Source of the DNA: an uncultured Clostridia bacterium
GTDB taxonomy: Bacteria; Bacillota; Clostridia; TANB77; CAG-508
Direction: 5' to 3'
Length of the DNA stretch: 33,218 nt
NCBI GenBank assembly: GCA_948505485.1
Contig: CAOPQH010000001.1
Coordinates: 1 to 33,218 of the forward strand
The notes below the pieces were generated by a model. The model did not search any database. It was not told where the DNA came from and saw only the letters and a list, made by a program, of their open reading frames with translations. The position numbers and the translations under genes are program-made. Positions 13,990 to 21,923 of the stretch are shown here, one piece after another (position 1 is the first letter of the stretch; each line of letters opens with the position of its first letter).

Positions 13990-14165
13990 TAGAGTAGTCA
14001 CGCGTGGTGATAGCACTTTTCGTTCGAGCCTGCGAAAACGAAAACGTCCTATCACCAGGTAGCTTGACGGTTACAAAATATTATAACCTAAAATATAGCA
14101 AAGCCGCTGGAGCTCGGGCGATTACTAATCGCCTCTACACTGCAATGATGCTATTTTGATATGAT
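13990..14165 (+). repeat. interspersed structured repeat, copy 1 (rearranged: B module then A module)
   Basis: B module tagagtagtcacgcgtg + long hairpin + caggtagcttgacggtta (13990-14073), a 17-18 nt spacer, then A module aatatagcaaagccgctggagctcgggcgattactaatcgcc... (from 14092). Confidence 0.85.
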
Positions 14166-14286
14166 ATTCTAGTAAAGTATATCTCTAAATAGTTACAAAC
14201 TTATATAATTATTTTTTAAAAAATATTGAAATTTACATTATATAAGTATATAATCTTACTGTTAAAACATAAAAGGAGTGTCTTTA

Positions 14287-15666
14287 ATGCCAAATATAGA
14301 AAAAATAAACAAATATAAAAATATACATATGATTGGAATCGGTGGAGTCAGTATGAGTGGAATTGCAGAAATTTTACACCATTGGGGATTTCATGTAACA
14401 GGATCAGATTGGTGCAAATCAGAAATTACTGATCTATTAGAAACAAGAGGAATAAAAGTAACTATAGGAAGCAATATAGAAGATTTGTCTAAATCTGACT
14501 TAGTTGTATATACAGCAGCAATACAATTTGACGATCCAGAATTACAAAAAGCTAAAAGATTAGGTATTCCAACTATAGAAAGAGCTGATTTCTTAGGAGA
14601 ACTAACAAGATGTTTCGAAGACACAATTGCAATATCAGGAACTCATGGAAAAACCACTACAACATCAATGATTTCTTTATGCTTTATTAAAGCATTAAAA
14701 GACCCAACAATTCAAGTTGGTGCAATATTAAACAAAATAAATGGAAATTACAAAATAGGAAATAGTGAACATTTTATAATAGAAGCCTGTGAATATGTTG
14801 AAAGCTTTTTAAAATTTAGTCCAAAAGCTGAAATAATTTTAAATATAGACAATGACCACTTAGATTACTTCAAAAACTTTGAAAACATAAAAAATGCTTT
14901 TATTAAATATGTAAAAATATTACCTAAAGATGGTATACTTGTTGTAAACGCTGATGACAACAACTGTTTAGACCTACATGAATATACAAAAGCAAAATTT
15001 ATAACATATGGAATTGAAAATGCAAATGCAGACTATATTGCTAAAAATATTAAATTCGATAATGACGGATTTTCAGAATTTGATGTCTATTCAAAAAATG
15101 AATTCTATGGAAAAATAAAATTATCAGTACCTGGAAAGCATAACATTTTAAACTCATTAGCTTGTATTGCTTTATGTACAGAATATGGAATTAAGTATGA
15201 AGATATAGCTAAAGCATTAAAAGATTTTACAGGTGCGCATAGAAGATTTGAATATAAAGGAAAAATCAATGGAGCCAGTATATATGACGATTATGGTCAT
15301 CATCCTACAGAAATATTAGCTACTGTAAATTCTTTAAAAAACAAAAAATACAATAAATCTTGGGTAGTTTTTCAACCCCACACTTACAGTAGAACTAAAA
15401 AACTATTAGATGATTTTGCAAATGCTCTTATAAACTTTGATAATATTATTTTGCTAGACATATATGCAGCAAGAGAAAAAAATACCTATGACATATCATC
15501 ACAAGACTTAGTAGAAAAAATCAATAATTTAGGCAAAAATGCAAAATACATTCCAAACTTTGATGAATGTGTATCTTACTTAAAAGAAAAAGTACAAGAA
15601 AATGATATAGTAATGACATTAGGAGCTGGAACAGTTACAGAAATTGGTCCCATGTTGTTACAATAA
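14287..15666 (+). CDS. murC: UDP-N-acetylmuramate--L-alanine ligase
   Basis: GIGGVSMSGIAEIL, GTHGKTTTTSM and DDYGHHPTE motifs. I prefer the ATG at 14287 (AGGAG 8 nt upstream) over the GTG at 14278. Confidence 0.9.
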   Translation: MPNIEKINKYKNIHMIGIGGVSMSGIAEILHHWGFHVTGSDWCKSEITDLLETRGIKVTIGSNIEDLSKSDLVVYTAAIQFDDPELQKAKRLGIPTIERADFLGELTRCFEDTIAISGTHGKTTTTSMISLCFIKALKDPTIQVGAILNKINGNYKIGNSEHFIIEACEYVESFLKFSPKAEIILNIDNDHLDYFKNFENIKNAFIKYVKILPKDGILVVNADDNNCLDLHEYTKAKFITYGIENANADYIAKNIKFDNDGFSEFDVYSKNEFYGKIKLSVPGKHNILNSLACIALCTEYGIKYEDIAKALKDFTGAHRRFEYKGKINGASIYDDYGHHPTEILATVNSLKNKKYNKSWVVFQPHTYSRTKKLLDDFANALINFDNIILLDIYAAREKNTYDISSQDLVEKINNLGKNAKYIPNFDECVSYLKEKVQENDIVMTLGAGTVTEIGPMLLQ

Positions 15667-15682
15667 AGTGTTTCGTAATTAA

Positions 15683-15845
15683 AATATAGTAAAGCCGTTG
15701 CAGCTCGGGCGATTGCTAATCGTCCCTACATTTCTCTACTATTCTAATTTATTGTTATGTTTTGTTGAAAATATATATTTATAACTGTAGAGTAGTCACG
15801 CGTGGCTACTCTATAATATTGAAAAACGCTATTGATACGTATGAA
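15683..15845 (+). repeat. interspersed structured repeat, copy 2 (B hairpin partly deleted)
   Basis: The A module and linker are close to copy 3. The B module starts normally (tagagtagtcacgcgtg at 15788), but its left arm and loop are replaced by gctactcta. Only a right-arm remnant (gaaaaacgctattgata) remains. Confidence 0.8.
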
Positions 15846-15856
15846 TACTTATAATA

Positions 15857-19860: not shown

Positions 19861-19908
19861 GATATAATCAGTAAATCTTAAAACAATAACGATTATATAA
19901 TTTTAGTT

Positions 19909-21696
19909 TTACTCTGTTGTTAGTTTGCAGTACTTCCAAGTTGTTCCATCATCTTGCAAATTGTTTGCATATATATCATATGTTGTTCTGTTCATAGAGT
20001 ACCTTTCTCTTCCTAACGCCATATAATACAGTTTAGCAATGTTCTTTTCATTACTATTTGGTGATGCTGCTAATCCTTTTACATATTTTAATATATCTGT
20101 TTCTTCTACTCCATTTCTGTTGTTTACTATACATTCATAGCATGCAAAGTGATTTTTGGGATAATAGTACTTTGTTTCTAATGTATCTCTATCTATAAAA
20201 CTTCTTCTTTCAAAATTTATATTAAAAACTCCTTGTTCTAAACTGTTTTCGTTTTTTATATGTTCAGAATTAACTTTATGATATTGTTGATTTATTGTTC
20301 CTTCATTATTTCCTTCTGTTGTTATATATATTGAGCCTTCTTCTACTACTTCTTTGTTTTTGTTATTCACTACAACAGAATATCCATTATACATTTTTCC
20401 ACCAATTGATATTCCCTGCATAAAACTTATCATTGATATATTATTTATTATACTATACCAGTCCGTTTCTGAAAGTGTTGGCATCTGAAAATCTGTTGTT
20501 GAGTCTGTATAATTATTAAAATTTGTTATTGCAACTGATAAATTTCTTTGTAATGTATATCTTATTACAGCTGTTCTGTGTTCATTAAAATTTGAAGACG
20601 CATCTTCAATTAAATTATTGGCATCTTCTGCAAATATCTTATTAGTAGTTCCTGTAAAACCAGCAAGACTAATATTACTATTATTATCTCCACTACCATA
20701 TTTTTTATAAATTGGATTATCTCCATCTTCTGTATATGCATCTGCAAACGTTAAGCTCGCTAATGTATTGTTACCTCTAACTTTATCAGTAAATGCCTTC
20801 GCTAATTTATAATAATTATAAGCAGAATCATTATTTTGTATCTTTTCTTTATAGTAATCTTTAGTCTTGCTATTTGTAATTAACTTTTTCTCACCACTTA
20901 TAATTGAAAACACTTCGTCATTTACGCTATTATAATAATATTTTGTTCCATTTATTTGCCTATAAGGAAGTTCATCTCCGTTTATGTTTTCATCTAAAAT
21001 ATTTTCTTTCAAATCATTATCACTTATTTTTTCGTTTTTAGCTATTTCAATACCATTATATGTTATATCGTTATTATTTTCTTCTACTCCATCTAGCAAA
21101 TATCCACCTATATTCCAATCTTCTAGCGTATTATTGTTTCCTTTAACTTTTCCTTGTATTGTTATATAATTATCAAGTGAATATGTTATAACAAAATCGC
21201 TTTTATCATCTGGTTTATATCTACAACTATAATAAACATATGGCTTTAACCCATACATTTTTTCTCCATCTTGATATTTAGAACCTTCCTTTAATTTTAT
21301 CCTATCTTGTGTAGTATTATCTATGTTTATAACATTTTTTAAAGGAGTGTATATATAAAATCCATCATACATTGTATAAACTAATGCTGGCACATAATAT
21401 TTAATTGAATCCTTATCTCCTTCACTTATTTTAAAATTCTCTGAAACAGAATTAAAAAAAGTATCAACAGACGCTTCTATATCCCTTATCTTAGAAGTCG
21501 CAGCATCAGATGTAGAATCATTTAAACTATTTATTTGATATGCCTTAATAGCATCATATGTAGCAGTATTCAACTTAGAATCATATGACGTTTGCAAACT
21601 TATCGTCTTTATCTGATTACCTGTATATGAAGATATTATAATAGATATAGGTAAAATAATAATAACAAAAATTACTGCTAAACTCTGTAATTTCAT
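19909..21696 (-). CDS. large protein with an N-terminal anchor helix, last gene of the pilus-like locus
   Basis: 595 aa. It has an N-terminal hydrophobic helix (MKLQSLAVIFVIIILPISIIISS), and the rest is an Asn/Tyr/Thr-rich domain that is probably extracellular. It has its own promoter and a GGAAG RBS. Confidence 0.7.
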   Translation of the reverse strand: MKLQSLAVIFVIIILPISIIISSYTGNQIKTISLQTSYDSKLNTATYDAIKAYQINSLNDSTSDAATSKIRDIEASVDTFFNSVSENFKISEGDKDSIKYYVPALVYTMYDGFYIYTPLKNVINIDNTTQDRIKLKEGSKYQDGEKMYGLKPYVYYSCRYKPDDKSDFVITYSLDNYITIQGKVKGNNNTLEDWNIGGYLLDGVEENNNDITYNGIEIAKNEKISDNDLKENILDENINGDELPYRQINGTKYYYNSVNDEVFSIISGEKKLITNSKTKDYYKEKIQNNDSAYNYYKLAKAFTDKVRGNNTLASLTFADAYTEDGDNPIYKKYGSGDNNSNISLAGFTGTTNKIFAEDANNLIEDASSNFNEHRTAVIRYTLQRNLSVAITNFNNYTDSTTDFQMPTLSETDWYSIINNISMISFMQGISIGGKMYNGYSVVVNNKNKEVVEEGSIYITTEGNNEGTINQQYHKVNSEHIKNENSLEQGVFNINFERRSFIDRDTLETKYYYPKNHFACYECIVNNRNGVEETDILKYVKGLAASPNSNEKNIAKLYYMALGRERYSMNRTTYDIYANNLQDDGTTWKYCKLTTE

Positions 21697-21723
21697 AAAA
21701 ACTTCCTTTCTTGCCTCTTGAAT

Positions 21724-21751
21724 ATTATACAGCCTTTATATCTTTTTGCAA
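21724..21751 (-). promoter_or_regulatory. near-consensus promoter for the 595-aa gene
   Basis: Minus strand: TTGCAA (21746-21751), 16-nt spacer, TATAAT (complement of 21724-21729). It directly abuts repeat copy 4. Confidence 0.5.
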
Positions 21752-21754
21752 CAT

Positions 21755-21923
21755 TTTTAGCTTTGCCTTAGGAGCTCGGGCGATTACTAATCGCCCCTAC
21801 ACTGGTTTTGAAGCTGTTTTGATACATTTTCAATATTATAGAGTAGTCACGCGTGTGTATAGCACTTTTCGCTTGAGCCTGACGAAAGCGAAAACGTCCT
21901 ATACACAGGTAGCTTGGCGGCTA
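21755..21923 (+). repeat. interspersed structured repeat, copy 4 (complete, inside the pilus-like locus)
   Basis: A hairpin gggcgatt-act-aatcgccc, the copy-1-type linker, then tagagtagtcacgcgtg, outer stem gtgtatag/ctatacac, inner stem ttttcgctt/aagcgaaaa, loop gagcctg, and tail caggtagcttggcggcta. Confidence 0.85.

Follow-up and report, generated by a model that had tools for sequence, protein, structure and literature searches.

What are the four hairpin-rich repeats that lie between the genes of contig CAOPQH010000001.1 from an uncultured Clostridia bacterium: mobile DNA, structured RNAs, or sites of a recombination system? The stretch analyzed here (hereafter the window) comprises this complete contig of 33,218 bp, that is, 33 kb of the host genome. 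It carries four copies of a repeat unit of about 170-190 bp, all on the plus strand and each intergenic among ordinary genes (copies 1 to 4, at positions 13990-14165, 15683-15845, 17222-17410, and 21755-21923, respectively). The answer that we favour, with a probability of roughly 55%, is that they represent a lineage-restricted family of modular structured interspersed repeats, most likely non-autonomous mobile (selfish) DNA. Several features of the family support this interpretation: (i) the unit is repeated beyond chance, (ii) its copies are insertions, (iii) its distribution is patchy and its orientation mixed, (iv) the copies are mosaic, (v) their structure is selected, and (vi) they have no conserved promoter, terminator, or open reading frame (ORF) and they break assemblies. 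The family is previously undescribed and confined to a few lineages among the uncultured, low-G+C Clostridia of the gut.

In a full unit, module A (a 20-nt flank followed by a G+C-rich hairpin of 8 bp) is joined by a variable linker to module B, in which a two-tier hairpin of about 50 nt stands between a conserved 5' flank (TAGAGTAG..CACGCGTG) and a conserved 3' flank. The A hairpin reads GGGCGATT-NCT-AATCGCCC, and its only variation is two C-to-T changes that leave G.T pairs. The linkers are of two subtypes, the first found in copies 2 and 3 and the second in copies 1 and 4. The A hairpin, the two linker subtypes, and the outer and inner stems of B agree exactly with a preceding sequence-only reading of this DNA. 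The loop of the B hairpin, GAGCCTG, which that reading called invariant, is constant in the window and changes to GAGCTTG in a 95%-identical strain. The copies are richer in G+C than their surroundings, as had been remarked (43-48% in the B modules versus 23-32% in the window).

The number, positions, and strand of the copies were confirmed by reading the intervals, by nhmmer, and by a repeat finder, which recovered an A family of four copies and B families with three full copies and a copy-2 fragment. The 17-mer TAGAGTAGTCACGCGTG of the B 5' flank has four exact plus-strand occurrences in the window against a dinucleotide-shuffle expectation of 0.00, and one occurrence with a single mismatch on the minus strand, within copy 2. 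Searches by nhmmer with each unit yielded zero extra copies or fragments in the remaining 25 kb of the window. Same-species ENA and Logan assemblies, which were made independently and are 95-100% identical, hold the copies at identical sites, and many short contigs of short-read assemblies terminate within repeat copies, as with multi-copy DNA. Thus, the repeats are real and multi-copy and do not reflect misassembly; their practical effect is to break short-read assemblies of these uncultured Clostridia. No conserved ORF runs over the copies, the reading frames differing from copy to copy, and a spurious 72-aa ORF over copy 4 has nothing similar among 5.8 billion proteins.

Comparison with sister species revealed sites that lack the repeats. 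Two contigs, L095 and L096, encode the same SpoVG protein as the window with DNA about 75-83% identical, and are syntenic with it over the whole region. At copy 1, a window stretch of about 277 nt corresponds to 46 nt in L096 and to similarly short sequences in L095 and a third contig, L101 (about 230-250 nt extra relative to L095). About 230 nt at copy 4 correspond to 25 nt in L095, and the 1779 nt holding copies 2 and 3 together with an ATPase gene correspond to 67 nt there. In total, copies 1-4 are missing from the orthologous sites of L095, and copies 1-3 from those of L096. Because the same intergenic sites occur without them in the sister-species contigs, the copies are insertions. The proposal of a real structured repeat family with compensatory changes is upheld, and the family behaves as inserted DNA.

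The distribution of the family over 90 related loci is patchy. No copy was found by blastn and fuzzy matching in 80 syntenic loci of related species (1.2 Mb). A covariance model of module B, iterated once and applied to 1.45 Mb, detected B outside the window species only in L096 and in another contig, L068. The former has a single diverged B alone, inverted, in the intergenic region of copy 4. The latter has two full B copies in opposite orientations and one 3'-truncated B upstream of murC; one of its B modules is accompanied by an upstream strand able to pair with its 3' flank and by a mini-hairpin (TCTAC-TTTT-GTAGA), the A hairpin and linker being absent. Since B stands alone in both contigs, it is an old, self-standing core; A and the linker, accessories to it, have so far turned up in the window species alone. 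Across species, six copies point one way and two the other, and therefore the uniform orientation in the window is no rule of the family.

The copies also show no constant relation to genes. The sense orientation is found in copies 1 and 2 (relative to murC), in the L096 copy, and in one L068 copy, and the antisense orientation relative to neighbouring genes in copies 3 and 4; the window copies lie upstream, downstream, or antisense of unrelated genes (spoVG/murC, murC/AAA_14, AAA_14/spoIVB, and a pilus-like operon). The constant sense orientation upstream of one gene class that marks cis-regulatory RNAs was thus not observed. A B module is located 160-200 nt upstream of murC and in murC orientation both in the window (13990-14075) and in L068 (5819-5903), the two MurC proteins being 73% identical. 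This shared murC site, as well as the use of the copy-4 region in L096, could reflect a site preference or coincidence, and is not significant with so few copies.

Wider searches returned no further members. The nearest-relative SpoIVB loci, P0123 and P0124, contain no B module; blastn against phage and plasmid records gave no match; and a full-text literature search with the core sequence found no paper containing it. In the GTDB representative genomes, exact B flanks separated by a gap had 0 matches; in IMG/VR, four exact patterns had 0 matches or chance matches in coding regions only; and in JGI metagenomes, an exact 17-mer had 11 matches, all of which are ascribed to chance because they lie in DNA of 52-65% G+C and lack the hairpin; all three scans were exact-match only and would miss diverged copies such as those of L068 and L096.

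The B hairpin is maintained by compensatory substitutions, in agreement with the covariation noticed from the sequence alone. In an unfitted MAFFT alignment of five B copies, 8 of 30 pairs show compensatory changes. In an alignment of seven B copies from three species, which was fitted to the covariance model and therefore flatters the pairing numbers, 18 of the 30 pairs do so, and the paired cells amount to 96.6%, a level reached by 0 of 500 shuffles; when the partners are slid by 1-3 columns, pairing falls to 35-50%. Two covarying pairs were also found in a 7-bp helix formed by the B 5' and 3' flanks. The apical loop (RGCYUG) and the single-stranded flanks are conserved in the three species.

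Conservation of this kind leads to the main rival of mobile DNA, namely that the units are multi-copy, independently functional structured noncoding RNAs, either small RNAs or ribozyme-like RNAs, that are transcribed from the plus strand and have B as the core and A and the linker as accessory domains. We consider it unlikely. The strong covariation of B and the conserved loop and flank nucleotides suit such an RNA, and so does the folding of the entire copy-4 unit into a closed multi-branch structure (z = -4.35). In the minimum free energy (MFE) fold of this copy, the A 5' flank pairs with the B 3' flank in a long-range helix that closes a four-way junction; however, this helix is missing from the copy-3 MFE fold (z = -2.74) and competes with the B-flank helix supported by the covariance model, and a four-way junction closed by pairing of the A 5' end with the B 3' end would be a speculative model. 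The subtype-1 linker contains a weak promoter-like site (TTGAAA-17-TAGAGT), whereas no promoter- or terminator-like sites are consistently placed around the units, and a conserved promoter or intrinsic terminator is lacking.

The strand that a functional RNA would use is likewise indistinct. The modelled B pairs include 18 G.U cells versus 2 A.C cells, an excess that leans to the plus strand and speaks for an RNA, but these counts rest on a model built and an alignment fitted in the plus orientation, and 15 of the 18 G.U cells fall in the outer helix, which is poorly supported, and in the pairs closing the hairpin, so that the robust stem alone gives 3 versus 1. Both strands fold about equally well: folded as RNA, they differ by -9.8 to +4.7 kcal/mol with inconsistent sign, and folded as DNA, the minus strand usually has a slight edge in stability. 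The C-to-T changes of the A hairpin, which the sequence-only reading had taken as a sign of plus-strand selection, are present, but two such events carry little statistical weight. The argument for plus-strand selection is weak. Further points against an RNA gene family are the mixed orientation relative to neighbouring genes, the absence of the inserted copies from sister species, and the truncated, rearranged, or mosaic state of copies 1 and 2, of a copy in the strain contig L097, and of the third L068 copy, which would be unusual for a needed RNA gene. Nor is there a match in Rfam, in line with the sequence-only reading, which had matched the unit to no RNA family: the search of the whole window against Rfam 15 at gathering thresholds found only tRNA-Leu and a pemK motif, both away from the repeats, and at E<=10 the region 13800-22100 gave four chance-level matches, none on any copy.

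The rearranged copies are informative about how the repeats change. Copy 2 had been described as having an internally deleted B hairpin; in fact, its B 5' flank continues into its own reverse complement, forming the 26-nt palindrome TAGAGTAGTCACGCGTGGCTACTCTA (12-2-12 around a GC core), which is followed by an inverted linker tail and B 5' arm. Read on the minus strand, this palindrome comes after AATATTA and a 15-nt stretch that matches the B 5' arm of the copy-3 type exactly. Copy 1, which had been called permuted, does have the order B, 22-nt spacer, A, with a linker tail on its left and a linker and a decayed TAGTAAAGTA on its right; however, it can be read either as a 5'-truncated unit followed in tandem by a 3'-truncated one, or as a unit that may stem from the opening of a circular or tandem intermediate. 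In strain L097, which is 95% identical, AATATTG and a complete copy-3-type B break the copy-1 hairpin after ...CACTTTTC, so that most of the hairpin is substituted and the junction reads TTTTC/AATATTG/TAGAGTAG (slashes mark the joints). The linker of copy 4 ends in the same junction (...CATTTTC/AATATTA/TAGAGTAG), and copy 2 has its inverted form. Since the three junctions are alike, the copies exchange segments with a recurrent breakpoint, TTTTC/AATATT.

Copies 2 and 3, which are direct repeats with 92.6% identity over 122 nt, exactly bracket a 1376-nt cassette carrying the gene of an AAA_14/DUF4143 ATPase. The cassette DNA is 90-92% identical to cassettes of many other Clostridia, its protein is 87-96% identical across many clusters as compared with 71-78% for MurC, and one identical 414-aa AAA_14 protein occurs in at least six genomic contexts, many of the carrying contigs being only 1.3-2.5 kb long. 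Being far better conserved than housekeeping genes, the cassette is horizontally mobile. At 17 other loci, where the cassettes are 90-96% identical, neither module A nor module B occurs nearby, and hence the repeats are not the ends of the cassette; the same loci rule out that the cassette is the autonomous parent of the repeats or is always flanked by them. This leaves two ways in which the cassette could have reached its place: by landing between or inside repeat copies, or by recombination with a copy.

These observations bring up the possibility that the units are att-like sites of a site-specific recombinase, that the AAA_14 cassette was captured at such sites, and that the copy-2 palindrome is the product of joining two left halves. 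In favour of this scenario, which we judge quite improbable, are the exact bracketing of a mobile cassette by direct repeats, the centring of the 26-nt palindrome on CACGCGTG, the recurrence of the breakpoint in three rearranged copies, and the fact that the same cassette elsewhere rides on elements with a large serine recombinase. On the other hand, the 17 cassette loci have no adjoining A or B module, and the housekeeping genes flanked by copies 1 and 4 are syntenic in repeat-free relatives. Template switching at the palindrome CACGCGTG could explain the copy-2 palindrome equally well. The sole recombinase in the window is a tyrosine integrase of the SAM-domain phage type (5089-6351), which is encoded about 7.6 kb from copy 1 in an apparently separate island and whose att sites were not compared with the repeats.

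In other genomes, the cassette occupies one end of 6-8 kb elements whose opposite end carries the large serine recombinase. These elements interrupt either an alpha/beta-type small acid-soluble spore protein (SASP) gene or a GH94 glycoside phosphorylase gene (L103, about 9715-18150; L104; L115, 9330-15044). The interrupted SASP gene has its N-terminal 27 codons at 18156-18236 and its C-terminal part at about 9612-9715. They resemble the skin-like intervening elements of sporulation genes, and L110 has both element ends in one joint that may represent a circle or an attP junction. A 38-nt palindrome, ATTACGAAAAAGTTCCGTAAACGGAAAAAATTCGTAAT, directly precedes the ribosome-binding site of the AAA_14/DUF4143 gene in the window (17102-17226) and in L103-L113; a second copy at the cassette edge, intact in other genomes, has degenerated in the window. 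The two palindromes bracket a TTGACT-17-TATAAT promoter and are thus probably autoregulatory operators. A 9-nt match to GCAATCGCC beside the cassette in L103-type loci was dismissed, as it is apparently part of an unrelated operator-like inverted repeat.

The sequence-only reading had suggested a non-autonomous element of the IS200/IS605 type, that is, a palindrome-associated transposable element (PATE), possibly with an omega/reRNA remnant, which would move as single-stranded DNA by means of a Y1 HUH transposase. The absence of terminal inverted repeats and of an evident target duplication, the subterminal hairpins at both ends, and the presence of all four window copies on one strand are as such an element would have them. 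However, the A and B end hairpins are unrelated in size and sequence: the former has 8 G+C-rich bp, the latter about 20 bp in two tiers, and direct as well as inverted alignments of A with B score at or near shuffle level, which also disposed of the idea that A is an inverted homologue of B forming long terminal inverted repeats. The orientation of the copies is mixed in L096 and L068. The window genes are mostly on the minus strand and the GC skew of the plus strand is negative throughout, which places the copies on the lagging-type strand and not on the strand expected for targeting of the lagging-strand template; the strand bias of IS608 is the opposite of this placement. The Pfam scan of 34 window ORFs (33 non-nested ones of at least 80 aa and one of 69 aa) found no Y1/HUH transposase, TnpB, or IS110-type family, and no Rfam model matched the repeats; Rfam includes the IS605-orfB and HEARO families. 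With unrelated end hairpins and an orientation that varies across species, the PATE interpretation is unsupported, and we give it little credence.

The repeats are also not classical miniature inverted-repeat transposable elements, since they have no significant terminal inverted repeats; no clear target duplication was seen either. When the A 5' flank of copy 3 or copy 4 is aligned with the reverse-complemented B 3' flank, the match is confined to TAGC/GCTA and scores below the shuffle mean. For the empty-site comparisons, species about 75-80% identical were available, and the flanks are too A+T-rich and diverged to fix the junctions.

Several of these facts weigh against the interpretation as mobile DNA. 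Significant terminal inverted repeats, which define the classical miniature elements, were not found, and no transposase or other candidate mobilizing gene is encoded in the 33-kb window. No exact empty site that would fix the element ends and any target duplication was recovered at the strain level; the collections searched had no strains of 79-99% identity. In the strains that are about 95% identical, the copies keep the same sites, giving no sign of very recent movement. The conserved apical loop and flanks would suit a functional RNA as well. Finally, every family-level statement is based on about eight independent B copies.

If the repeats are indeed non-autonomous mobile DNA, their hairpins and conserved flanks would be the structure recognized by an enzyme that acts in trans and has its gene elsewhere in the genome. 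Given the lack of terminal inverted repeats and of a visible target duplication, such an enzyme would probably act on folded single-stranded DNA or by site-specific recombination. Once inserted, the elements would be passively co-transcribed with their neighbours, and their stable hairpins may incidentally act as RNA 3'-end or stability elements, like REP and BOX sequences. A more far-reaching version, that an undescribed mobility or recombination system uses B (with or without A and the linker) as its recognition structure or as its working RNA or single-stranded DNA, or else that B belongs to a new class of functional structured RNAs specific to gut Clostridia, appears to us a long shot. Possible signatures of such a mechanism are the missing terminal inverted repeats and target duplication, the recurrent breakpoint, the junction where the strand switches at the palindrome CACGCGTG, and the B-then-A order of copy 1, which a circular or tandem intermediate would be expected to give. 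Elements that lack terminal inverted repeats and target duplications and have unlike end hairpins fall outside the well-understood mechanisms of bacterial transposition. The family would gain greater weight if B were tied to a particular recombinase or to a discrete transcript; as one more structured repeat family, it is mainly of practical value, the B covariance model being usable for a census. The coordinates of the copies and of the cassette are collected in Table 1.

Table 1. Positions of the repeat copies, their parts, and the intervening gene cassette in the window
Feature	Start	End	Strand	Remarks
Copy 1, B side	13977	14073	+	about 13 nt of linker tail; 103 bits
Copy 1, B 5' flank	13990	14006		TAGAGTAGTCACGCGTG
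Copy 1, B two-tier hairpin	14007	14055		
Copy 1, B 3' flank	14056	14073		CAGGTAGCTTGACGGTTA
Copy 1, spacer	14074	14095	+	22 nt, from B 3' flank to A 5' flank
Copy 1, A side	14096	14180	+	subtype-2 linker, then decayed start of a second B, TAGTAAAGTA
Copy 1, A 5' flank	14096	14115		TAGCAAAGCCGCTGGAGCTC
Copy 1, A hairpin	14116	14134		GGGCGATTACTAATCGCCT; G.T at base
Copy 2, A and subtype-1 linker	15683	15787	+	
Copy 2, A 5' flank	15687	15706		TAGTAAAGCCGTTGCAGCTC
Copy 2, A hairpin	15707	15725		GGGCGATTGCTAATCGTCC; one G.T
Copy 2, rearranged B	15788	15839	.	palindrome, then inverted AATATTA and B 5' arm fragment (TCAATAGCGTTTTTC)
Copy 2, palindrome	15788	15813		TAGAGTAGTCACGCGTGGCTACTCTA; 26 nt, centred on CACGCGTG
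AAA_14/DUF4143 ATPase gene cassette	15851	17226	-	coding sequence 15857-17101 and 125 nt of promoter/operator; outside the repeat family
Copy 3, full unit	17222	17410	+	107.8 bits
Copy 3, A 5' flank	17226	17245		
Copy 3, A hairpin	17246	17264		
Copy 3, subtype-1 linker	17265	17325		
Copy 3, B 5' flank	17326	17342		
Copy 3, B hairpin	17343	17392		
Copy 3, B 3' flank	17393	17410		
Copy 4, full unit	21755	21923	+	107.4 bits; MFE -61.1 kcal/mol, z = -4.35
Copy 4, A 5' flank	21758	21777		
Copy 4, A hairpin	21778	21796		
Copy 4, subtype-2 linker	21797	21838		
Copy 4, B 5' flank	21839	21855		
Copy 4, B hairpin	21856	21905		
Copy 4, B 3' flank	21906	21923		

The host is a spore-former of 26% G+C whose closest genomes are metagenome-assembled genomes of uncultured gut Clostridia, such as 'Clostridium sp. 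CAG:389/440' (MurC 71-78% identical). The species is rare, the next SpoIVB among 5.8 billion proteins being 79% identical. The genes around the copies are spoVG, murC, the AAA_14/DUF4143 ATPase gene, spoIVB, and a pilus-like operon, and the 8-kb stretch bearing the copies is recombination-prone, with several strain-specific insertions. One segment of this stretch, between spoIVB and the gene of a 595-aa protein (18661-19908, about 1.2 kb), corresponds to gaps of only 91 and 121 nt in L095 and L096, respectively. It contains ORFs of 69 and 62 aa without a Pfam match, a strongly hydrophobic one of 43 aa, and a perfect TTGACA-17-TATAAT promoter at 19318-19346, and may be a small toxin-antitoxin-like insertion. 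The long minus-strand operon at 19909-32871 encodes proteins without Pfam matches, several of which have a similar N-terminal hydrophobic segment (DNA repeat family D1, at 23229, 23725, 25041, and 25943), as well as a weakly T2SSE-like ATPase (28712-30124); it has the look of a system for a pilus or pseudopilus. Only 7 nt separate the left end of copy 4 from a near-consensus promoter, TTGCAA-16-TATAAT (21751-21724). At the other end of the window, positions 1-6516 do not align to L095 and are likely a genomic island at tRNA-Leu(TAA) (6428-6516, minus strand); its genes include the tyrosine integrase and those of DUF6076, Apea-like HEPN, and Schlafen/AlbA_2-HATPase_c_4 proteins, along with the pemK RNA motif at 4678-4754.

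How does the family compare with known structured elements? Integron attC sites likewise keep their structure while the sequence varies, and copies 2 and 3 stand as direct repeats on both sides of a cassette. However, no RYYYAAC/GTTRRRY core sites were seen in the copies by eye (no pattern search was made), no IntI gene was found, housekeeping genes lie between the copies, and the units are larger, at 170-190 nt. PATEs of the IS200/IS605 type share with the repeats the absence of terminal inverted repeats and the subterminal hairpins, but their end hairpins are alike and resemble those of the parent insertion sequence, and their strand bias follows replication, neither of which applies here.

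The bcr1 elements of the Bacillus cereus group and the ERIC elements of enterobacteria are of comparable size (about 130-160 nt), retain a long hairpin through compensatory changes, are insertions relative to close relatives, and are often co-transcribed with neighbouring genes. They differ in having defined ends and, in bcr1, a TTTAT target duplication; a duplication of this kind is not visible here. REP/BIME sequences and REPINs are also short structured palindromic units joined by linkers into mosaics, without terminal inverted repeats or target duplications; the GTAG present in both B flanks (TAGAGTAG, CAGGTAGC) is a further likeness to REP sequences that may serve as a lead. REPINs are mobilized by RAYT (Y1) transposases, whose genes have REPs on their flanks. 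REP units are single imperfect palindromes of 20-40 nt with a conserved 5' GTAG, found mainly in Proteobacteria, in contrast to the two-tier hairpin of about 50 nt with conserved flanks of about 17 nt described here.

The BOX elements of Streptococcus pneumoniae are built of the modules boxA, boxB, and boxC. Like the repeats of the window, they are intergenic elements of Firmicutes, about 100-200 nt long, whose modules occur in varied combinations and numbers, which have predicted stable stem-loops, encode no transposase, and occur in either orientation. They differ from them in sequence, no similarity having been found, in copy number (more than 100 per genome versus at least 4 in 33 kb), and in the partial complementarity of their ends A and C, which has no significant counterpart here. 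By analogy of behaviour and anatomy, and with no sequence relationship found, pneumococcal BOX, REP/BIME, ERIC, and bcr1 would be the closest known systems, and nothing found in this locus exceeds what bacterial repeat families are known to do.

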